Notes under the pieces: model-generated
What the model saw: the letters and a program-made list of their open reading frames with translations, nothing else
The model's database searches: none
What the model was told of the DNA's origin: nothing
Shown: positions 12,097 through 48,476 of the stretch, in pieces
Numbering within the stretch: the first letter of the stretch is position 1
Layout: the number at the start of each line of letters is the position of its first letter
Assembly (NCBI GenBank): GCA_964514135.1
Contig: CAZEPL010000008.1
Span: 5,701 to 69,700 of the forward strand
DNA length: 64,000 nucleotides
Direction of reading: 5' to 3'
Origin: an uncultured Spirochaetaceae bacterium
GTDB taxonomy: Bacteria; Spirochaetota; Spirochaetia; SZUA-6; RPPD01
Position numbers and translations under genes: made by a program

Positions 12097-14241
12097 ATGA
12101 AAGAGAACAAGAATATTTTATTAATAGTTGAATCACCTGCCAAAGCGCGTACCATAGAGAAGTATCTGGGTAAAGGCTATCAGGTTGAGGCTTCAATGGG
12201 ACATTTGATTGATCTGCCCAAATCACGGCTTGCAGTAGATGTTAAGCATAATTTTACTCCCGAATATATTACAGTACGCGGAAAAGCCAAGATTCTTAAA
12301 AACCTGATCCAGAAGGCCAAGCACACGGAAAAAATACTTCTTGCTTCCGATAATGACCGGGAAGGTGAGGCCATCTCATACCACATCAAAAATGCTATTT
12401 TAAAGAAGTATCCACAGCTTGAATTCGAGCGCATAGTGTTTAATGAAATCACACCATCGGCAATTCGTGAGGCAATCGGAACCTCTCGGGATATTGATCA
12501 GGACAAGGTTGCTGCCCAGAAAGCCAGACGTATTTTAGACAGGCTTGTCGGATATCATTTATCACCTATCCTTTGGGCAAAAGTTAAAAACGGACTATCT
12601 GCGGGAAGGGTGCAATCGGTAGCTTTACGTCTGCTGTGTGAAAGGGAAATAGAGGTTGAGAATTTTATTCCGGAAGAGTATTGGTCTTTACAGGTAAACC
12701 TTGAGAAAAAAAGCAAAAAAATTCTGGCACAGCTTGTAGAGTATAAAAAGCTGAAACCGGAGCTCAAGTTGCAAAAAGATGTAGAAGCGATAATCAAAGA
12801 GCTTAAAAACATTGAATTTACTGTAAAAGACATAAGACAGGTTGAAAAAGTCATAAAGCCGAAGGCTCCGTTCACCACATCCAAACTACAGCAGGCCGCA
12901 GCAACCCGATTAGGATTTACTTCACGAAAAACCATGCGCATAGCGCAGCAGCTCTATGAAGGTATAAATATCGGTAGCGAACATGTGGGATTGATTACGT
13001 ATATGCGTACCGATTCAACACGGATTGCAGGCAGTGCCCTTGGGCAGGTGCGTGATTTTATAAAGCAATATTATGCTCTGGAGCTGCCTCCGAAAGCGCT
13101 TTTTTATAGTGTAGCCAAAGGTGCAGAGGATGCTCATGAAGCTATCAGGCCTACTTATGTTGATAAGACCCCTGAATCTCTACGCTCAAGTTTAAGCAGC
13201 GAACAATTTAAACTGTATGCCATAATATGGGAGCAGTTTGTGGCGTCACAGATGAAACCGGCTAAATCTTCAACCATTTCTGTGGATTTTGAAGCCGGAG
13301 CTGCCGTGTTTAGATCCTCAAGTACAAAAATGATAGAGAAGGGTTTTCAAAAGGTTTTAAAGCAATTAGCATCAAAGGAGAAAAAAAACGTACTGCCCAA
13401 ACTTACTGTGGGTGAGAAGGTGGAATGCACCGGCTTCAAACCGGAACAGCATTTTACTTCGGGGCCTGCGCGCTATACCGATGCTTCAATTATAAAGACA
13501 CTTGAAGAAAATGGAATCGGGCGCCCCTCTACCTATGCGCCTATTATTTCAGTACTGCAGGATCGCTATTACATAGTAAGAAAGAATAAGCAGCTTGTTC
13601 CCACCACTCTGGGGAGAATTATCAATGACATTTTAATCAAATCCTTTCCTGACATTCTCAATGTGAATTTTACGGCAGAAATGGAGAGCAAGCTGGATAA
13701 AATAGAGGAGCATAGCCAGGAGTGGATAGCGATGCTCAAAGAGTTTTATCCGCCTTTTAAAATACAAGTTGATCATGTCATGGAGACATTGGAATCACTA
13801 AAGGGTGTACTGGATGAGGAAACCGATTACACTTGCGAAAAGTGCGGTAGGAAAATGATTAAAAAGCTGGGAAGATTCGGTTTTTTCCTTGCCTGCGGCG
13901 GTTTTCCCGAATGCAGAAACACAAAATCCGTACCGCTGGCCGATTGCCCTCGCGATAACTGTGATGGAAAAATTATTACACGCCGCAGACAGGGGGGAAG
14001 AGGAAGAGAATTTTACGGGTGCACCAATTATCCTGAATGTGATTTTATTTCACACTTTAAACCCATAAATCAGAGCTGTCCTAAGTGCGGCAAGTTTCTT
14101 GTTGAAAAAACCGATAAAAAGCGCGGTTCATACAAGTCATGCATTAATCCTCTGTGTAATTATTTGCATACAGCAGATGAATATGAGAATGGGAATAAAC
14201 AGTCAGCAATTTTAGATGAGGAGTCGCGTAACAGTGCTTAA
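12097..14241 (+). CDS. topA: DNA topoisomerase I with C-terminal zinc ribbons
   Basis: TOPRIM N-terminus (ILLIVESPAKARTIEKYLG). Active-site region. Three C4 zinc-ribbon repeats (CEKCGRKM..., CPRDNCDGK..., CPKCGKF...). Confidence 0.96.
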   Translation: MKENKNILLIVESPAKARTIEKYLGKGYQVEASMGHLIDLPKSRLAVDVKHNFTPEYITVRGKAKILKNLIQKAKHTEKILLASDNDREGEAISYHIKNAILKKYPQLEFERIVFNEITPSAIREAIGTSRDIDQDKVAAQKARRILDRLVGYHLSPILWAKVKNGLSAGRVQSVALRLLCEREIEVENFIPEEYWSLQVNLEKKSKKILAQLVEYKKLKPELKLQKDVEAIIKELKNIEFTVKDIRQVEKVIKPKAPFTTSKLQQAAATRLGFTSRKTMRIAQQLYEGINIGSEHVGLITYMRTDSTRIAGSALGQVRDFIKQYYALELPPKALFYSVAKGAEDAHEAIRPTYVDKTPESLRSSLSSEQFKLYAIIWEQFVASQMKPAKSSTISVDFEAGAAVFRSSSTKMIEKGFQKVLKQLASKEKKNVLPKLTVGEKVECTGFKPEQHFTSGPARYTDASIIKTLEENGIGRPSTYAPIISVLQDRYYIVRKNKQLVPTTLGRIINDILIKSFPDILNVNFTAEMESKLDKIEEHSQEWIAMLKEFYPPFKIQVDHVMETLESLKGVLDEETDYTCEKCGRKMIKKLGRFGFFLACGGFPECRNTKSVPLADCPRDNCDGKIITRRRQGGRGREFYGCTNYPECDFISHFKPINQSCPKCGKFLVEKTDKKRGSYKSCINPLCNYLHTADEYENGNKQSAILDEESRNSA

Positions 14242-36114: not shown

Positions 36115-38202
36115 ATGGCAGATATGCAACGGGTATTCGGGTATTTAACTAAAAGAAAAAGCGATCTTGCCATAGCAGCAGGTGTAATTACTATTGTACT
36201 GATGCTGCTTATTCCGCTTCCCGAATTCATTCTCGATACATTCATGTCCGTAAACCTGGTAATAAGCTTATTGGTCATACTCATAGTCTTATTTTCCAAG
36301 AAGGTCCTTGATTTTTCCGTGTTCCCGACCGCTCTGCTTATTTTAACAGTGTACGGACTGGCACTTAATGTTTCTTCTACCAGATTGATTTTAGCTAAGG
36401 GGAAGGAATTTCAGGGTCAGATTGTTAGAGCGTTTGGAGCCTTTGTCACAGGATCTGAGCACGAGTTTACCGGTTATGTGATCGGTCTCATTATCTTTAT
36501 TGTGATTATTGCGGTTCAGTTTATCGTCATAACAAAGGGTTCAACTCGGGTTGCAGAAGTAGCAGCACGTTTTACTTTGGATGCCCTGCCAGGAAAGCAG
36601 ATGGCTGTTGAAGCTGAATATAATTCGGGTTTAATTACGGAAGAAGAGGCAATCAGAAGAAAGCATGAAATCCAGCGTGAAGTTGACTTTTACGGAGCAA
36701 TGGATGGTGCTTCAAAATTTGTTTCCGGTAATGTTAAAGTTGGAATCCTCATCACGTTGATTAATATGATAGGTGGTCTCATTGTCGGCATGACGATACA
36801 TGGTGAAACCTGGTCGGAAGCTGTTAATACCTATATTTCACTCACTATAGGCGACGGTCTGGCAGCACAGCTGCCGGTTCTCTTAATATCTACCGCGACC
36901 GGTATTGTTGTAACAAGAGCGGTGTCGGACGCCAGCTTCGGAACGGATGTGACATCACAGTTCTCAAGTCAATCAAAACCATTTTTAATCGGTATGGTAT
37001 TTTTAATTCTGATGGGTTTTTTACCGGGCTTCCCCTGGTATTTATTATGGCCGATGGGCGCACTGTTTGGATTTTTGGCATATACTCTTTCAAAAAATAT
37101 GATGGTCAAAGAAGAGAAGGTAAAGCTAAAAGAAGCCTCGGAACAAGAAAGAAAGCTGCCTGCGGAAATATCACCGGTAGTACCATTGGATCCTCTGTCG
37201 CTGGAGTTGGGCTATGGTCTTATTCCGTTAGTGGATAAGGAGCATGGGGCGGAACTGTTGGATAGGATAACACGAATTAGAAGGGAAGCTGCCTTGGATC
37301 TGGGGCTTGTGGTGCCGCGGATTCGTATCATAGATAATATGCGTCTCGATCCGCCCGAGTACTGCTTTAAAATCAAGGGTGTTGAGGTGGGGAGAGGAAA
37401 GATCAGAATGGGACGCTATCTGGCAATTAATCCAAGCGGAGAAAAGGAAGAACTGCCGGGAGAAAAAACACATGATCCGACATTTGGGCTTCCGGCTGTT
37501 TGGATTTCGGAGGAGCATAGAGATAAGGCTGAGCAGTTGGGTTATACCGTAGTAGACCCGCCGTCAATAATAGCGACACATCTTACTGAAATTATAAAAC
37601 AGCATGCTGAAGAATTATTAGGCAGACAAGAAGTACAATCGATTATGGATGCATTACGTGCTGATTATCCTGCTGTTGTGGAAGAGGTTGTAAAGACACT
37701 GTTAGTCGGTGAAATACAAAAAGTCCTGCAGGGATTATTAAAGGAACAGGTATCGATAAGGAATATTGTGGTCATACTGGAGACTCTGGCGGATTTCGGC
37801 CCGGTTACAAAAGATTTAAGCTATCTGACAGAAAAAGCCCGTCAGGCTTTGGGACGTCAGATATGTTTTCAGTATGCAGATGAAAACAGAATATTACGAG
37901 TGCTGACGATTGATCCTGATGTAGAGAAAAGAATTATTGATTCGCGGGTTGAAACAGGCAAGGGTTTAACTGCTGCTTTGGAACCCGCTCTGCAGCGTAA
38001 GTGGATAAATTCATGTCATAATTTCATAAAAAGTGTACAAGAACAGGGATATCTGCCTATAATCCTCTGTTCGGAAGCCGCACGGCCCTTGGTTAAAGAC
38101 AGTACAAAACGTGAGCTACCGCAGCTGGCGGTAATGTCTGTGCCGGAAATAGTTACGGAAGTAACTGTAGAATCTTTGGGATCAATATCAATAAATGAGT
38201 AA
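36115..38202 (+). CDS. flhA: Flagellar type III export apparatus protein FlhA
   Basis: 695 aa. N-terminal TM domain and large cytoplasmic FlhA-C domain. Confidence 0.96.
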   Translation: MADMQRVFGYLTKRKSDLAIAAGVITIVLMLLIPLPEFILDTFMSVNLVISLLVILIVLFSKKVLDFSVFPTALLILTVYGLALNVSSTRLILAKGKEFQGQIVRAFGAFVTGSEHEFTGYVIGLIIFIVIIAVQFIVITKGSTRVAEVAARFTLDALPGKQMAVEAEYNSGLITEEEAIRRKHEIQREVDFYGAMDGASKFVSGNVKVGILITLINMIGGLIVGMTIHGETWSEAVNTYISLTIGDGLAAQLPVLLISTATGIVVTRAVSDASFGTDVTSQFSSQSKPFLIGMVFLILMGFLPGFPWYLLWPMGALFGFLAYTLSKNMMVKEEKVKLKEASEQERKLPAEISPVVPLDPLSLELGYGLIPLVDKEHGAELLDRITRIRREAALDLGLVVPRIRIIDNMRLDPPEYCFKIKGVEVGRGKIRMGRYLAINPSGEKEELPGEKTHDPTFGLPAVWISEEHRDKAEQLGYTVVDPPSIIATHLTEIIKQHAEELLGRQEVQSIMDALRADYPAVVEEVVKTLLVGEIQKVLQGLLKEQVSIRNIVVILETLADFGPVTKDLSYLTEKARQALGRQICFQYADENRILRVLTIDPDVEKRIIDSRVETGKGLTAALEPALQRKWINSCHNFIKSVQEQGYLPIILCSEAARPLVKDSTKRELPQLAVMSVPEIVTEVTVESLGSISINE

Positions 38203-38212
38203 GGGAGATACT

Positions 38213-39394
38213 ATGCAATATTTTACCATACAAGCAAAATCGCATAGAGAGGCAATCGATAAGATGAGAATACAACATGGTGAGAATGGGAAAATACTTA
38301 CCTATCGTAATATTCGTTTGGGCGGATTTTTAGGCTTGTTTTCAAAAGACGGAGTAGAGATTACAGGCTATGTTTCTGAAAAAAACCATAAACAGAATAA
38401 TATTCAAAACGAAAAAATGAAAGTATTGGAGACGGCAAAAAAAGAACAAACACTCAACTATATACTTAAAGAATTAAAGGAATTGAAGTATGGTATCGGT
38501 AAGTCGATAGGAATACAGCAACAAGATCCGCCGGCAATTAAAAGAGTAAAGGAAATATTGTTGGAAAACGATTTTTCTTTGGAATACATCGGGCAGATAA
38601 CCGATAAGATGTGCAATAGATTTTCTATGATGGAGTTAGAAAATATAAATAAAATACAGGGTGATCTGATTGATTGGATTGCAGAGAGTGTTTCCATATA
38701 TGATGTTGATGAACAGAATGCTAAAAAACCCAAAATAATAACTGTAATAGGACCTACGGGAGTTGGCAAAACCACAACTGTTGCCAAACTGGCTGCACTT
38801 TATGGGTTAGAAAATAACGGGAAAAAGCCCTTAAATGTGAGGATAATTACTATTGATAATTATAGAATAGGAGCAAAACAGCAAATTGAGACATATGGTA
38901 ATATCATGCGTATTCCGGTATCTTTTGCAGAAACGCCCTCGGATTTAAAAAAACTGATTGCTCTGTATAATGATATTGATATAATTTTGATTGATACGAT
39001 TGGTAAAAGCCAAAAAGATTATAAAAAATTAGCGGAAATGAAAGAATTATTGGACTATTGCGGGAGTAAAACGATTACGATATTGGCGGTAAGTGCAACA
39101 ACAAAATGTAAAGATCTTGAAGAAATATTTCAGCAGTATGAACCGTTTAAATATGTTTCTATAATTATAACCAAGCTTGACGAGACTTCACAAATAGGTA
39201 ATATCATAAGTGTTATAGCTAAAAAGAAGAAATCGATTTCTTTTGTTACAGACGGTCAGAAAGTGCCGCAGGATATTGAAAAAGCTTCAATCCTGCGCTT
39301 TTTGCTGCAACTGGAAGGATTGCATATAAATCGCGAGTATTTAGAAAAAAAGTATGGTAAAAGAGAAAATGTTTTAAATGAGGTGTGGAGCTAA
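38213..39394 (+). CDS. flhF: Flagellar biosynthesis GTPase FlhF (SRP-type)
   Basis: SRP-GTPase G domain (VIGPTGVGKTTTVAKLAA). The ATG at 38213 has a well-spaced RBS (AAGGGAG); the ORF-track start at 38195 overlaps the flhA end. Confidence 0.9.
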   Translation: MQYFTIQAKSHREAIDKMRIQHGENGKILTYRNIRLGGFLGLFSKDGVEITGYVSEKNHKQNNIQNEKMKVLETAKKEQTLNYILKELKELKYGIGKSIGIQQQDPPAIKRVKEILLENDFSLEYIGQITDKMCNRFSMMELENINKIQGDLIDWIAESVSIYDVDEQNAKKPKIITVIGPTGVGKTTTVAKLAALYGLENNGKKPLNVRIITIDNYRIGAKQQIETYGNIMRIPVSFAETPSDLKKLIALYNDIDIILIDTIGKSQKDYKKLAEMKELLDYCGSKTITILAVSATTKCKDLEEIFQQYEPFKYVSIIITKLDETSQIGNIISVIAKKKKSISFVTDGQKVPQDIEKASILRFLLQLEGLHINREYLEKKYGKRENVLNEVWS

Positions 39395-39397
39395 GGT

Positions 39398-40255
39398 GTG
39401 GCTGATCAGGCAGAAAAACTCAGAGAATTAATGCAGAACCGAAAAGAAGATACTCGCTTGAATACACGAATTATAGCAGTCTCAAGCGGAAAAGGCGGTG
39501 TAGGAAAGACAAATATTGCCATAAATTTAGCTCTGTCGTATGCGGAATTGGGTAAAAAAGTAACCGTGATGGATGCGGATCTGGGGCTGGCTAATGTCAA
39601 TGTTGTACTGGGAGTTATTCCAAAGTATAATCTGTACCACGTAATAAGACAGCAGAAAAAAATGAAAGATATCATTATGGACACAAGTTACGGGATTAAA
39701 ATTGTAGCCGGTGCATCAGGTTTTTCCAAAATTGCAAATCTTTCCGAAGATGAAAGAAAGATATTTATACAGGAATTGGATGAACTTGCCAATGCGGATA
39801 TCATAATTATCGATACAGGTGCGGGAGTATCAAATAACGTCATTTCTTTTATCGCTGCTGCAGATGATGTTATTATTGTTACTACACCGGAACCCACGGC
39901 TATCACAGACGCCTACGGTATTATAAAGATTATTGCAACAGAAATAGAAAATATTGATTTAGGATTGAAATTAGTAGTAAACAGGGTGAATTCAGTAACT
40001 GAAGGCAAAAAGGTAGCTCAGCGAGTAATTTCAATCGCGAATAATTTCTTGAATATAAAAGTAGATTATCTCGGTTTTATATATAACGATAAATTGGTTC
40101 ATAATGCTGTAATAAAGCAAAAACCGTTTTTTTCAATCGATCCTCACAGCAAAGCTTCAATATGCATTAAACATATAATTAGCAGATTAGAAAATATCGA
40201 TTATCGTGAAGGCAGCGGTATTTCACGTTTTTTAAAAAAGCTTTTTGGTAATTAA
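39398..40255 (+). CDS. flhG: Flagellar number regulator FlhG/YlxH (MinD-like ATPase)
   Basis: GTG start. Deviant Walker A ([18 protein letters not shown]). MinD/ParA fold. Confidence 0.9.
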
Positions 40256-40326: not shown

Positions 40327-41166
40327 ATGATACGCTGGAATATAGCGGTATACTCAGGTTTAGGAGCTTTTTGTTTATCATTTATTATAGGAATATTGAG
40401 CGGGAATCCTTTTCTTGCTATTCTTTTTCGTGCTTTTATATTCGGTGTTATATTTGCAGGGATGGGAGCTGCGGGGAGCTTTATAATAAATAAGTTTTTA
40501 CCTGAAATATTTAATGCTGATTATAAACAGACAGCAGAAGCAACTAATAGTAAAAATGTTGATATCGTGCTTCCGGAAGAGAATCCTGTTTTAGGTGAAT
40601 CTTTATTTGAAGAAAAAGAAAAAAGTGGTGATGAGATTATTGAAGATGTTGACATGGCAGAAGAGCTGGAGACCGCAGAAGAGATTGAAGCAACTGATGG
40701 TATTGATGAGTATGAAGATGTTGATGCGGATGAGAATATAAATCAATATGAAGAGCCGGAAGAACAGGAAGAAGAAGTAACAGCAGAGGAAAAACTTGAA
40801 AACGGTTATGATAATATTGTCGTAGAAGAAATGGATCATGATAAAAATGAAAATATAGATGTAACGGATAAGACAAATCAAAAAAATCAGCTTCAGGAGC
40901 AGGCAGTTCAGGCTCCGGAAAGCGCTGAAGCAAGCTCTGAAAAAATAGCCGACGAAGAATTGGATGAGCTTCCGGATATGGGGGTATTGGAAAATTCATT
41001 TATGGTAATAAGCAGTGATGAGGGCTCAGAAAATAATCCTCTCGCCGGAGTAAAGTCACAACTTTCCGGTAAAATAACAAAAAAAGAAGATCCGGCGGTA
41101 TATGCACAAGCAGTGCGTACAATCATAAAAAGAGATGAGGAAGGACCAAAAAAATATGGCCGATGA
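40327..41166 (+). CDS. Hypothetical membrane protein: two N-terminal TM helices plus a long highly acidic (E/D-rich) low-complexity tail
   Basis: [24 protein letters not shown]...[24 protein letters not shown], then about 200 aa that are extremely E/D-rich. The 3' end overlaps the fliA start by 11 nt. Confidence 0.6.
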
Positions 41167-41944
41167 ACTTTTTAAAAAAAAGTCAGAGGAAGAGCTTTGG
41201 AGATCTTATAGAAAGAAAAAAGATCCCAAGATACGTGATTTCTTTGTTAAACAATATGCACCATTAGTAAAATATGTTGCAGGTAAAGTTGCCATAGGAA
41301 TGCCTCAAAATGTGGAGTTTGATGATCTGGTCGGTTATGGAGTATTCGGTTTGTTTGATGCGATAGAGAAATTCGATCCTGAAAAGCATGTAAAATTTAA
41401 GACATATGCCGTAACGCGAATTCGTGGATCTATCTTTGATGAATTGAGATCTATCGACTGGGTTCCCAGATCAGTAAGGCAAAAGACGAGAGAAGTAGAA
41501 GATACAATTTCTCACTTAGAAGGACAATTAGGAAGATCTGCTTCTGATAATGAAATTGCAAAGGCCTTAAATCTTACTATAGACGATTATCAAAATCTTA
41601 TGCTTAAAATCAGTGGTACCTCAATAATGTCGATTCATGATGTCTGGTATACCGGAGAGGATAATGATAAAATATCCATTGCAGAAAGCATAGAATCACC
41701 CTCAAGTCTTAATCCTGATACGATTGTAGAAAAAAACGAAATTAAGCGTGTTATTATTGAAGTTATTAATGAGCTTCCGGAAAAAGAGAAAAAAGTTCTT
41801 GTCCTTTACTATTATGAAGACTTAACTTTAAAGGAGATAGGTGAAGTACTCGATGTAACCGAATCGAGAGTATCACAGTTGCATACTAAGGCGATATTGC
41901 GCTTAAGAGCAAAACTTACGAGCTTAAAGAAGGGTATAATGTAA
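41156..41944 (+). CDS. fliA: Flagellar RNA polymerase sigma factor FliA (sigma-28/WhiG family)
   Basis: Region 2 ([37 protein letters not shown]). Region 4 HTH ([25 protein letters not shown]). Confidence 0.92.
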
Positions 41945-41945
41945 A

Positions 41946-43895
41946 GTGATTAAAATAGATCAATTAAGAAAATATATGAAAACACTCTATGAAAAAGATA
42001 AAAAAAATAAAACCATACATGCAAAAGGAAAAACTTTAGACGATGCATTACGCGAAGCGGCTATTCAATTGGGATTACCAATAAAAAAGATAGAGTATGA
42101 AATTATCAAAAGAGGTACTAAAAAAGTACTCGGTATGGGCGGCGGAGAATGGGAACTTGTTGCTTATGCTGCAGCAGAAGACCTGGATGCAAAAGATATA
42201 TTTGAAGAAGAGATTGCTTTTGATATGAATCTCAAATCAGAATATCTTGAGAAGGCTAAAAATAAAGACGGCAAAATAAGTGTCCGCCTGCAGCCGGACG
42301 GTGTCTTTTTAAAAGTAAACAAACCTATAGGCAGCGGGAAAAAAGCAAATATTGCAGCTGCTAAAAATATAATTATGAAAAGAAATATCACAAGTTATGA
42401 CGAAGCGCTTGTCGATAAAGTTGTACGCTATGCAGACGATAAGTATGTTAAAATTGCCAATTTTGAATACAATCCCGGTCAAGATCCCGTTCTTTCGGTG
42501 AGTATTGCAGATATGGAGATGAAAGCTTTTTTACTTTTACAGGCACCGGGACCTGGTGGTGCAGATTTAGCCGCGGAAACAATAAAGGGTTATCTAAACA
42601 ATAATAGAGTTGTTTTCGGAATTAAAGAAGAGGTGCTAAGGAGTTTGCAAGAAAATCCTGTTTATAATGAAGAAATCCTGGTTGCCGAAGGTCAGAAACA
42701 AGCCAACGGAAACGATGCAAAACTAGTTTATAATTTCAAGACTGATCATACGACTATTATTTTTAAGGAAAAAAACGGTCGTGTGGATTTTAAGGACCTT
42801 AATTTAATTGAGAATGTAGTTGCCGGTCAGCAGTTGGCAAAAAAAGTACCGCCGGAACGCGGCAAAGAAGGACAGACAGTTACGGGAAAAACATTACCTG
42901 CAAAGCCCGGTAAAGATAGTACAATCGGAGTGGGAAAAAATGTAAAACTCTCGGAAGATGGAACGACAGTAATATCGGAAATCAACGGTCAGGTAATCCT
43001 CCTTAATGGAAAATTAAACGTAGAGCCCGTATACACAGTCCCGGGAGATGTAAATCTTCATACCGGTAATATTTTATTCTTGGGTACGGTTATAGTACGC
43101 GGAAATGTTGAAGACGGATTTTCAGTAAAAGCTGCGGGAAATATAGAGGTAATGGGGAATATCGGAAAAGCAATGCTTGATGCGGAAGGAGATATTATTG
43201 TACACCAAGGTATACTGGGCAAGAATGAAGGTAAAGTAAAATGTGGAAAAAATATATATGCAAAATTTATTGAGCATGCTTATGTTGAGGCAGAGAATAA
43301 TGTAATTGTAACCGATGGAATACTGCATTCATATGTCGATTCAAATAAAAAAATAATCTGTCAAGGAAGAAGAGCTTCGATTGTTGGAGGGAGACTACGG
43401 GCAGCAGAAGAAATTAATGCCAAAAACCTAGGATCGGTTGCAGGTGCTGAGACTATTTTAGAAGTAGGATATGATCCGAAAAGTAAGAAAAGACTCATAG
43501 AACTGCAGTCACAGAATGAGATATTAAGTAAAGAATTGGAAGAAATCGAGAGAAATGTAAACACATTAGAGAATCTAAAGAAGGTACAAAAAACACTACC
43601 GGAAGAAAAAGAGAAATATCTTATAGAACTCAATGAAAAGCGTATGAAAATATTATCGGAAATGAAAGAGATAAAGAACCAGATTGATGAAATAAAACAT
43701 CACCTCGCATCGCTTAAAGTGAAAGGTAAAATATCAGCCTCTGAAAGAGTATTCCCCGGAGTGAAGATATATCTTAAAGATGTTATGGATAAAGTTCGTG
43801 TAGAACAAAAATCGGTTACCTATATATTAGAGGGTAAGCGTATAAGGATGACAAAATATGAGCCTGTAGAAGGAGAATACTTGAGGAAAAGATAA
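41946..43895 (+). CDS. FapA/DUF342-family protein (Jag-N-like N-terminal domain, beta-helical repeat core, C-terminal coiled coil)
   Basis: GTG start 2 nt after the fliA stop. N-terminal KTLDDALREAAIQLGLPIKKIEYEII (Jag_N-like). Repetitive GN-rich beta-solenoid segment (GNILFLGTVIVRGNVEDGFSVKAAGNIEVMGNIG...). Coiled-coil tail. Confidence 0.65.
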   Translation: MIKIDQLRKYMKTLYEKDKKNKTIHAKGKTLDDALREAAIQLGLPIKKIEYEIIKRGTKKVLGMGGGEWELVAYAAAEDLDAKDIFEEEIAFDMNLKSEYLEKAKNKDGKISVRLQPDGVFLKVNKPIGSGKKANIAAAKNIIMKRNITSYDEALVDKVVRYADDKYVKIANFEYNPGQDPVLSVSIADMEMKAFLLLQAPGPGGADLAAETIKGYLNNNRVVFGIKEEVLRSLQENPVYNEEILVAEGQKQANGNDAKLVYNFKTDHTTIIFKEKNGRVDFKDLNLIENVVAGQQLAKKVPPERGKEGQTVTGKTLPAKPGKDSTIGVGKNVKLSEDGTTVISEINGQVILLNGKLNVEPVYTVPGDVNLHTGNILFLGTVIVRGNVEDGFSVKAAGNIEVMGNIGKAMLDAEGDIIVHQGILGKNEGKVKCGKNIYAKFIEHAYVEAENNVIVTDGILHSYVDSNKKIICQGRRASIVGGRLRAAEEINAKNLGSVAGAETILEVGYDPKSKKRLIELQSQNEILSKELEEIERNVNTLENLKKVQKTLPEEKEKYLIELNEKRMKILSEMKEIKNQIDEIKHHLASLKVKGKISASERVFPGVKIYLKDVMDKVRVEQKSVTYILEGKRIRMTKYEPVEGEYLRKR

Positions 43896-44216
43896 ATGTC
43901 TATTCTGCCCATTGACCTCCAGATTCTTTTCTCTCAGATGAATCAAGTGGGAAAAGAGCAGGCCATACAGAAAGATGGCAATGCAATTCATCAGTCACTT
44001 CAGGGGATGGAGCTGGTAAAAAATACCGAGCAGAAAGATAGTTCTGTAAATCAAAGTAAAGATATCGGCGAAGGCTTAGAAAAAATAAAGAATGAAGAAA
44101 ACAAAAAGAAGGAAGAGCGGGAAAGAGAAAAAAATGAAAAAAAAGAACAAGCAGAGCATAAAAAAACAGTATTTGCAGATCCTGATTTAGGTAAGCATAT
44201 TGATATAATGGGATAA
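43896..44216 (+). CDS. Hypothetical small K/E-rich protein
   Basis: 106 aa. ATG directly abuts the FapA stop. Highly charged (NEENKKKEEREREKNEKKEQAEHKK). No recognisable motif. Confidence 0.45.
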   Translation: MSILPIDLQILFSQMNQVGKEQAIQKDGNAIHQSLQGMELVKNTEQKDSSVNQSKDIGEGLEKIKNEENKKKEEREREKNEKKEQAEHKKTVFADPDLGKHIDIMG

Positions 44217-44226
44217 TAAACATTTT

Positions 44227-44676
44227 ATGGAATCCTTTCTTTTTATTATAGCATGTCAGTTGATCAGTTTTTTATTACTCTATATTTTTTTAAAGCGCAA
44301 ACTCGATAAGCAATATTCGAAACAGGGTCAAATTGAAAGCATTGAACATGAAGTTGAAAAGATAATTATCGAGTTAAATCAAACAACAGCACGTAATATA
44401 GGATTGATTGAAAATAAGTTAAAAGAAATCGAAGCACTGATGGGTACCACGGACAAAAGACTGAATATTCTTAGGCGTGAAAGCGAGAAGCATGATTTAA
44501 GTAAAAAAGTATATAATAATCTTATGGAAAGCAGTAATCAACATAAGAACAGGAACATCAAAGATGAAGTAATCAGACTCTATTCCAGCGGCTTTCCATC
44601 CGAGATGATTGCCAATCAGTTAGGAGCTTCAGTCGGAGAAGTTGAGCTTATTATATCCTTAGCAGAGAAAAAGTAA
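44227..44676 (+). CDS. Hypothetical single-pass membrane protein with coiled coil and C-terminal HTH-like segment (positional analog of B. subtilis SwrB)
   Basis: N-terminal TM helix (FLFIIACQLISFLLLYIFL), a coiled coil, and a C-terminal DEVIRLYSSGFPSEMIANQLGASVGEVELIISLA segment. Confidence 0.5.
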   Translation: MESFLFIIACQLISFLLLYIFLKRKLDKQYSKQGQIESIEHEVEKIIIELNQTTARNIGLIENKLKEIEALMGTTDKRLNILRRESEKHDLSKKVYNNLMESSNQHKNRNIKDEVIRLYSSGFPSEMIANQLGASVGEVELIISLAEKK

Positions 44677-46368: not shown

Positions 46369-46401
46369 TTTTAAACACTTAATATATGAAAGGAGTTAAT
46401 C

Positions 46402-46635
46402 GTGGAGAAAGATCTTGTTGAGTACATTGCAAAAGCACTGGTTGATGACCCGAGTGGAGTTAATGTTAATGTTATTGAAGGAGAAAAATCAACCATCCTG
46501 GAACTTAAAGTCGCCGATGGCGACATCGGGAAGGTCATTGGTAAACATGGTAGAATTGCCAAAGCAATTAGAACCATATTAAGTGCTGCGGCAACAAAAA
46601 AGGAGAAGAGGGTAGTATTAGAGATCCTGGATTAA
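46402..46635 (+). CDS. KH-domain RNA-binding protein (YlqC/UPF0109 family)
   Basis: GTG start. [20 protein letters not shown]-type motif. Conserved position after rpsP. Confidence 0.85.
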
Positions 46636-47846: not shown

Positions 47847-48476
47847 ATGGATCTTATAAAGGCTTGTGAAGCAGAACAGATAAGAGATGATATAAAGAAT
47901 TTTAATATTGGTGATACGGTTAAAATTCATTTCAAAATCATTGAGGGGAAAACAGAGAGGGTACAAGTATTCGAAGGTCTGTGCATAGCAAAGAAGAATA
48001 CAGGTATTAGGAAAACTTTTACCGTAAGGAAGATATCCTATGGGATTGGCGTGGAGAGAACCTTCCCTCTGCATTCACCCAAAATTGTAAATGTAGAAAT
48101 TATTCGGGTTGGACGTGTAAGAAGAGCAAAACTTTACTATATCCGGAGCAGGGTGGGTAAAGCTGCCAAAGTAAAAGAGTATATTCAGAAAAAGGAATCC
48201 AAAGAAACTCTTAAGAAGAGTAAAAAAGCCACGAAGACCAAACCAGCTGAAATTGAAGCTGTAAAAGAAACGGTACAACAAGAACAAAAAGTAAAGACGG
48301 AGGGCAAGACCAACTCAATTAAAACGAAAACTATGGTCAAGAAAGAGACCGAAGATACAAAAGTTAAAAAAGCGACCACGGAGTTAAAAACCAAAAAAGA
48401 GACTAAAGAAACTGCAGTTAAAAAGAAAGCTGCTCCTACGGTAATAAAAGAGGATAATAAGAAAAAAGAGCAATAA
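47847..48476 (+). CDS. rplS: 50S ribosomal protein L19 with roughly 90-aa lysine-rich C-terminal extension
   Basis: The L19 core spans residues 1 to about 115 ([23 protein letters not shown]...[13 protein letters not shown]...RRAKLYYIR). It is followed by a K/E/T-rich tail ([27 protein letters not shown]...[18 protein letters not shown]). Confidence 0.9.

Follow-up and report, generated by a model that had tools for sequence, protein, structure and literature searches.

A protein that is very probably a Type-1 FlgV with a disordered acidic tail, encoded between flhG and fliA in an uncultured spirochaete

What is the protein encoded between flhG and fliA in the flagellar gene cluster of an uncultured Spirochaetaceae bacterium, and what could its acidic tail be doing there? 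The 64,000-nucleotide stretch of DNA analyzed here (the window) contains at this place an open reading frame (ORF), at 40327-41166, which the original prediction described as a membrane protein followed by an extremely acidic, low-complexity tail. Its position next to fliA had suggested a membrane-localised decoy or regulator of FliA. The reading frame itself was confirmed. It runs from ATG to stop on the plus strand and encodes 279 aa, organized into a hairpin of two transmembrane (TM) helices, an acidic disordered tail and a C-terminal helix, as expected for a flgV-type coding sequence (see below). The peptide quoted from the tail in the original prediction was found in this protein. The identical 279-aa protein was called on nine public metagenome contigs, on which the flanking genes were likewise the same.

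A search with the single sequence returned only seven homologues. Each came from an uncultured spirochaete and was annotated as a hypothetical protein. Their alignment displayed four conserved blocks with variable acidic sequence in between. A profile made from this alignment was run against 1.84 billion representative proteins and matched 1793 clusters (50% identity) at E <= 1e-3; 846 of them passed E <= 1e-10. The comparisons reported below used, from the 1793 clusters, the 150 top-scoring complete sequences, which were approximately 190-310 residues long. When the alignment of these 150 sequences served as the query, 26 matches were obtained and the search was swamped by low-complexity words; the N-terminal part of the alignment alone gave ten matches, which were fragmentary. 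No protein from a named genus such as Borrelia or Treponema was present among the matches of the single-sequence, 150-sequence-alignment and N-terminal-only searches or in a cluster look-up of ten representatives. The search of PDB sequences with the family profile revealed no solved relative and gave chance acidic matches only. Pfam and NCBIfam scans of the 279-aa protein, and Pfam scans of the best 150 of the 1793 relatives, yielded nothing meaningful. The protein is unannotated in the databases because its family lacks a Pfam or NCBIfam model.

The two TM helices that had been predicted were recovered both by hydropathy and by AlphaFold2 (AF2). The first helix (aa 4-25, 40336-40401, plus strand) was modeled with a pLDDT of ~97, and its residues S18 and G22 were nearly invariant in the alignment of the relatives. 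The second (aa 29-57, 40411-40497, plus strand) carries an intramembrane arginine, Arg35, whose codon occupies positions 40429-40431. R35 was invariant across the seven close homologues; among the best 150 of the 1793 relative clusters, the position was occupied by R in 146 and by K in 4. With the 150-sequence alignment as input, AF2 gave the whole TM hairpin a pLDDT of ~97. The three-residue loop between the helices, together with R3 and K56, is consistent with an N-in/C-in topology. Near the end of the second helix the protein has the polar residues S51, N55 and K56, and these columns were polar in 105, 138 and 145, respectively, of the best 150 of the 1793 relatives. Overall, the AF2 model consisted of a helical hairpin plus disorder, with neither beta strands nor a folded domain.

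The gene belongs to a flagellar superoperon located on the plus strand. In the window, flgB, flgC, fliE, fliF, fliG, fliI, fliK and flgE are followed by flhB, flhA, flhF (38195-39394, Pfam SRP54 GTPase) and flhG (39398-40255, Pfam ParA/MinD families). On the 3' side of the ORF come fliA, encoding sigma-28 (41156-41944, Pfam Sigma70 r2, r3 and r4), fapA (41946-43895, Pfam FapA and FapA_N), the gene for a small protein of 106 aa (43896-44216), that for a TM+DUF6115 protein (44227-44676, Pfam DUF6115), all on the plus strand, and then ffh. The order fapA, small protein and TM+DUF6115 protein corresponded to the FapA/YjfB/TM+HTH sub-module as described in PMC11607428. The synteny was compared in 35 loci, eight from genome assemblies and 27 from metagenomes, all retrieved via peptide motifs of the 279-aa protein alone (an alignment of eight sub-clade sequences was used for the metagenome scan). 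The flhG gene was directly upstream in 35/35 loci. Directly downstream was fliA wherever the contig reached that far; fapA came next, then the genes for the small protein and the TM+HTH protein. The predicted tie to the flagellar system and the close coupling to fliA were thus found again as an flhG-X-fliA order across the 35 loci.

This architecture and this position recall FlgV, which was described in 2023-2024 as a protein of the flagellar basal body. In the 2024 paper of Zamba-Campero et al. (PMC11607428), the Borrelia burgdorferi protein BB0268 was renamed FlgV, and a widespread family, Type-1, was defined. In the description of the family given there, Type-1 members possess two TM helices with a well-conserved intramembrane Arg in TM2, a tail that is disordered, highly polar and variable in length, and, at the C-terminus, a conserved peptide combining hydrophobic residues with a basic one. 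According to the same account, flgV is present in all spirochaete genomes and lies, without exception, at the junction between FlhF/FlhG and the sigma-28/FapA/YjfB/TM+HTH sub-module in the flagellar superoperon. The 2TM hairpin, the TM2 Arg, the disordered polar tail of variable length, the C-terminal peptide and the superoperon position were all found for the 279-aa protein, which is very probably the FlgV (Type-1, BB0268 family) of this uncultured spirochaete. The assignment rests on architecture and gene position rather than on an alignment with BB0268, and the clade deviates in one secondary signature, given in the Discussion of PMC11607428 only. No D or E was found within aa 24-34, with Asn27 at the expected place, and only 13 of the best 150 of the 1793 relatives had a D or E in this segment; the column is approximate, and the feature is absent from the family description in the Results of that paper. 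The protein is an unremarkable representative of a family that was described only recently and reveals no new kind of system. A "hypothetical protein" would in this way become a named flagellar component, all the named homologues found being labelled hypothetical. The original prediction had missed that the family was already named and characterized.

The closest known system is BB0268 itself, which shares with the window protein the 2TM hairpin with the TM2 Arg, the disordered polar tail and the C-terminal peptide. The locus is also shared: in both, the gene directly follows flhF-flhG and precedes fapA within a spirochaete superoperon of the flgB type (as described in PMC11607428). The two differ in size (279 aa here versus 159 aa for BB0268), the tail being much longer and strongly acidic here. 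Because BB0268 is much shorter, its tail may differ in charge. They differ as well in the presence of an overlapping fliA, whereas sigma-28 was lost in Borrelia according to the same source. The Type-2 FlgV of Helicobacter pylori and Campylobacter jejuni (PMC10655999) similarly shows a 2TM hairpin and a cytoplasmic tail, and its gene lies after flhF-flhG and next to fliA. Type-2 proteins, which are those of Campylobacterota, have GFFxG in TM1 and lack the TM2 Arg, whereas R35 is present in the window protein, with GLGAFCLSF in its TM1; a Type-2 identity was ruled out on these two features. Sequence similarity between Type-1 and Type-2 is marginal (e-value ~0.1) according to the paper on Type-2 FlgV (PMC10655999).

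The tail was acidic, but less so than had been stated. It had been put at about 75% E/D/Q/N over roughly 200 residues; the best 200-residue window reached 43%, and the value of 75% was never attained, with peaks of 62% in the best 50-residue window and 67% in the best 30-residue window. The segment aa 61-279 contained 41% E/D/Q/N and 30% E+D, and the segment aa 80-230 contained 47% and 36%, respectively, with a net charge of -47. The bias itself was strong and far above chance, with 54 E+D in 151 residues where the proteins of the window as a whole have 12.5% (binomial P = 2e-13). The most negative stretch of 151 residues had a net charge of -49, and no other protein of the window went below -18. 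The acidity was not uniform, as the last 50 residues of the protein had a net charge of +2 and ended in a conserved amphipathic helix. The disordered cytoplasmic part that precedes the C-terminal helix is ~195 residues long. Mean pLDDT values per 10-residue block were 45-67 over residues 61-250 in the AF2 model. Within this region, the acidic disordered linker (aa 88-212, 40588-40962, plus strand) had 125 residues, 38% E+D, a net charge of -41 and mean pLDDT values of 45-58 per 10-residue block. A tail was present and net negative in 150/150 of the best 150 of the 1793 relatives, with a length of 134-254 residues, i.e., an approximately twofold variation; this tally covers the best scorers to a spirochaete-derived profile, in a family whose more distant members include Firmicutes and PVC bacteria. 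The disordered acidic tail is very probably a family-wide trait, not the mark of a novel type of regulator.

Conserved segments lie on both sides of the linker. Short motif 1 (aa 78-87, 40558-40587, plus strand) was a block conserved in the relatives, in which DIVLPEE was invariant in the seven close homologues. Among the best 150 of the 1793 relatives, I80 was found in 141 and P87 in 116, and the mean pairwise identity of the block was 59%. Short motif 2 (D-LPD-G-LE--F, aa 213-225, 40963-41001, plus strand) was similarly conserved, with L215, P216 and D217 present in 139, 147 and 123, respectively, of the best 150 of the 1793. It was identical in the closest relative although dS was ~1, and AF2 placed a short helix at residues 219-222 (pLDDT ~66). 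Both motifs are conserved here and go without mention for the BB0268 family in the parts of PMC11607428 drawn on for this comparison. The C-terminal peptide (aa 255-273, 41089-41145, plus strand) forms an amphipathic helix with the consensus DPxxxAKAIRTxLKRDExG. In the best 150 of the 1793 relatives, D255, P256, A260, A262 and T265 were at least 95% conserved and R264 was present in 108. The corresponding AF2 helix covered residues 256-271 with a pLDDT of 74-89. A likeness of the FlgV C-terminus to the FliG-binding C-terminus of FliF (HPEDVAQLIRSWL) was visible by eye, but neither a family PSSM nor an HMM singled out the FliF C-terminus, and its reading as a mimic was rejected as unsupported.

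Published work on other FlgV proteins suggests where such a tail might act. In Borrelia, PMC11607428 reports FlgV at the basal body, with a cryo-ET density at the MS/C-ring junction, and a flgV deletion that left filaments fewer and shorter and basal bodies normal. In H. pylori, the MS/C-ring junction carries a ring of FlgV, coplanar with the cytoplasmic part of FliF and FliG-N; AlphaFold2 predicted contacts between the TM helices of FlgV and those of FliF, and a co-immunoprecipitation of FlgV with FliF in C. jejuni is cited in the same paper (PMC10655999). By analogy with these family members, the FlgV hairpins would sit beside the FliF TM helices as a ring at the MS-ring/C-ring junction, and loss of FlgV would result in fewer flagella or filaments with basal bodies retained, and, as in Borrelia, also in shorter filaments. 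We consider it quite probable that the window protein is a Type-1 FlgV at the MS/C-ring junction with a polyanionic tether as its tail. In this model, the tail would most likely be a flexible anionic tether presenting docking motifs at that junction. Its exact sequence would drift, the negative charge and the disorder would be selected, and repulsion from the anionic membrane and from the neighboring tails would keep it extended inside the C-ring. The tail would present the three motifs (aa 78-87, 213-225 and 255-273) to one or several flagellar partners, and may thereby tune the late, filament-stage assembly.

It might be argued that only the docking of the hairpin on FliF matters and that the tail is a neutral low-complexity spacer, its acidity being a by-product of a disordered, soluble composition. 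The linker is indeed variable, with a pairwise identity of 18% (the TM hairpin and the three blocks reached 39-59%) and a length of 42-155 residues (median 84.5) among the best 150 of the 1793 relatives. In one relative the tail contained a (TVEG)n repeat and was apparently frameshifted, and acidity correlated with a proxy of GC content (rho 0.53). However, the linker was negative in 150/150 of the best 150 of the 1793 relatives, with net charges from -8 to -47 and never zero or positive; that of the window protein lay at the long, acidic end of the family range. In the comparison with the closest relative (64% identity), dN/dS was approximately 0.38 in the acidic linker, 0.15 in the TM hairpin, 0 in motif 2 and 0.04 in the C-terminal peptide, values which are rough because they come from a single pair with biased composition (dS ~1). 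Between these two proteins the linker showed almost no indels (a single one of one residue in 117 positions). This gene has no tandem repeats of note, only two marginal 9-bp repeats being detected in the gene region, so the tail is not a microsatellite-like expansion. These observations at the sequence level point to a linker under relaxed purifying selection, which would not be neutral. The neutral low-complexity expansion, against which the original prediction had set its own proposal, appears disfavoured by the negative charge in all 150 relatives, the dN/dS and the absence of repeats, and the spacer explanation is in our opinion improbable. The strong conservation of the motifs on either side of the linker and the dN/dS of 0.04 in the C-terminal peptide imply that the distal end has to be delivered somewhere. 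A different possibility is that the negative charge itself is what is selected, in which case the FlgV ring would constitute, at the MS-ring/C-ring junction near the export gate, a dense polyanionic brush with the three docking motifs at its tips and act as an electrostatic gate or recruitment platform. Its clients could be cargo exported late, chaperones, FlhF through its basic N-terminal domain, or the sigma-28/FlgM system. The brush and this choice of cargo both seem rather doubtful to us. If they were true, the fliA overlap would couple sigma-28 production to the number of FlgV-equipped basal bodies, and motif 1 and D-LPD-G-LE--F would be new interaction modules.

The proximity of fliA had led to the idea of a membrane-anchored decoy or anti-sigma-like regulator, whose polyanionic tail would sequester FliA or another basic protein at the membrane or the basal body until assembly proceeds. 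The gene adjoins fliA wherever the contig extends past it, the family is reported to be co-conserved with sigma-28 in PMC11607428, and the tail is disordered like FlgM, with a conserved terminal helix that could bind a partner. Yet the FliA of the window is not basic, its net charge being -2, which makes an electrostatic capture implausible. The basic proteins invoked in support of the idea were correctly identified for L19 (net +28) and FliK (net +16), but not for the 106-aa protein, which has a mixed charge and is net -3. FlgM shares with the window protein its intrinsic disorder and a functional link to sigma-28, but it is soluble and secreted, lacks TM helices and binds sigma-28 via its C-terminal helices. 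Pfam scans of the protein and of the best 150 of the 1793 relatives gave no FlgM match at E <= 1, nor any match to another anti-sigma factor, to Hfq/LSM or to KH; an identity with FlgM was ruled out on this ground. In addition, PMC11607428 describes Borrelia as keeping FlgV in the absence of sigma-28, with a deletion phenotype in the filaments, and Turneriella as encoding sigma-28 elsewhere in the genome. A charge-based FliA decoy is unlikely, and the coupling to fliA is real and explained by the operon structure; we hold the broader anti-sigma-like regulator to be quite improbable. The old "Hfq" label of BB0268 and a 2026 report of in vitro chaperone activity would make the protein one that binds RNA or acts as an RNA chaperone. 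In vitro, Borrelia FlgV annealed and unwound RNA (PMC13285594), and the C-terminal consensus LAKAIRTVL resembles IAKAIRTIL, the helix after the GXXG loop of the KH-domain protein whose gene lies at 46390-46632 (E = 0.0026 within the window). Against this, a cytoplasmic tail with a net charge of -47 would repel RNA, the family is one of integral membrane proteins devoid of a folded domain, and the Nat Commun study (PMC11607428) reports no Hfq homology and no RNA co-immunoprecipitation. An Hfq/Sm-like identity was ruled out by the lack of any Hfq/LSM match in Pfam or NCBIfam and by an AF2 model free of beta strands. An RNA role is hard to reconcile with the -47 tail and the absent Hfq/KH profile match, and appears to us extremely improbable.

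The reading of the protein as a Type-1 FlgV whose tail tethers docking motifs would spell out three points left implicit in the published description of a variable-length "highly polar tail", as worded in PMC11607428. The tail was always net negative (in the best 150 of the 1793 relatives), two conserved motifs exist besides the C-terminal peptide, and the linker appears to be under purifying selection. The charge, the length and the three motifs offer handles on the effect of FlgV on filament assembly, a point left open by that 2024 paper. Whether FlgV binds RNA is disputed, and a tail this anionic is relevant to the question. An analogy can be drawn with B. subtilis, which has no flgV and in which swrB lies next to the flagellar sigma factor gene sigD, on its downstream side. 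SwrB is similarly a small, membrane-anchored protein with a cytoplasmic part, and once the basal body is complete it helps flagellar assembly to progress (PMC4526659). It is monotopic, with one TM helix, and the likeness is an analogy of role and placement only.

The junction with fliA (41137-41166, plus strand) contains an RBS-like GAGGAAGGA at 41137-41145, inside flgV codons. The start of fliA is most likely the ATG at 41156, which is used by the gene callers, lies downstream of this RBS-like sequence and opens an M-[AG]-D start conserved in the relatives. The predicted overlap of the two genes was confirmed, with an extent of 11 nt (ATGGCCGATGA) from the start at 41156 and of 32 nt if the first in-frame ATG, at 41135, is taken. 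In six genome-derived loci, the spacing to fliA ranged from an 11-nt overlap to an 8-nt gap. The overlap most simply reflects co-translation in one operon. Upstream, in the flhG-flgV gap, a TTGACG...CATAAT pair was considered as a sigma-70-like promoter and rejected, its spacer being 15 nt and the scan not reporting it; promoter-like sites in the region were no commoner than in shuffled sequence. Two antisense ORFs on the minus strand (40603-40881 and 40637-40999) are most plausibly mere shadows cast by the GA-rich coding strand. Most of the best 150 of the 1793 relatives ended in ...RDEKG, and the clade-specific C-terminal extension of six residues, PKKYGR, results from the overlap with fliA.

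The gene order on the forward strand at positions 14216–44676 begins with genes resembling integrase/XerC and the AAA protein HslU, continues through flgB and further genes to flhG-flgV-fapA, and appears to be collinear with the flgB superoperon of Borrelia B31. Presumably, the fliA gene between flgV and fapA is an additional gene in the window as compared to that superoperon.

Although the first ATG in frame with fliA is that at 41135, the gene most likely starts at position 41156 (MADELF). The putative ribosome binding site of fliA, GAGGAAGGA (41137–41145), is located inside the codons for the conserved RDEEG of the putative FlgV. With this start, flgV and fliA overlap by 11 nt, and this overlap gives rise to a clade-specific extension of FlgV, PKKYGR.

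Within the region coding for the FlgV acidic tail, two ORFs of 92 and 120 aa are present on the reverse strand (40603–40999). Their translations are rich in F, L, H and P, and the two ORFs seem to be artefacts that mirror the many GAA and GAG codons of the sense strand. In the related locus L003 (5001–6145), the tail of the flgV homologue contains a tandem peptide repeat, (TVEG)n; therefore, repeat expansion can alter the tail length in some lineages. This homologue is broken into two overlapping ORFs, an apparent frameshift or assembly error.

After fapA, a 106-aa protein (43896–44216, forward strand) occupies the place of the small protein "YjfB" in the published sub-module (PMC11607428). 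It had no Pfam match. Both its N-terminus, LPIDLQxLF, and its C-terminus, DPxLGxxIDI, are conserved, the middle is K/E-rich with mixed charge, and the protein, with a net charge of −3, was kept in every related locus of sufficient length.

The KH-domain (KhpA-like) ORF at 46390–46632 on the forward strand contains a 9-mer, IAKAIRTIL, almost identical to LAKAIRTVL in the C-terminal consensus of the FlgV family, and the HMM match had an E-value of 0.0026 in the six-frame translation of the window. The KH Pfam models matched none of the FlgV relatives, the 150 best-scoring diverse homologues, and the likeness is therefore probably that of a convergent amphipathic helix. A KH-like 9-mer in this family is curious beside the dispute on RNA binding by Borrelia FlgV.

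The 209-aa ORF at 47847–48476 (forward strand) is taken to be the L19 protein named in the original prediction. It carries a lysine-rich C-terminal extension of about 90 residues, an unusual length for L19, and the whole protein has a net charge of +28.
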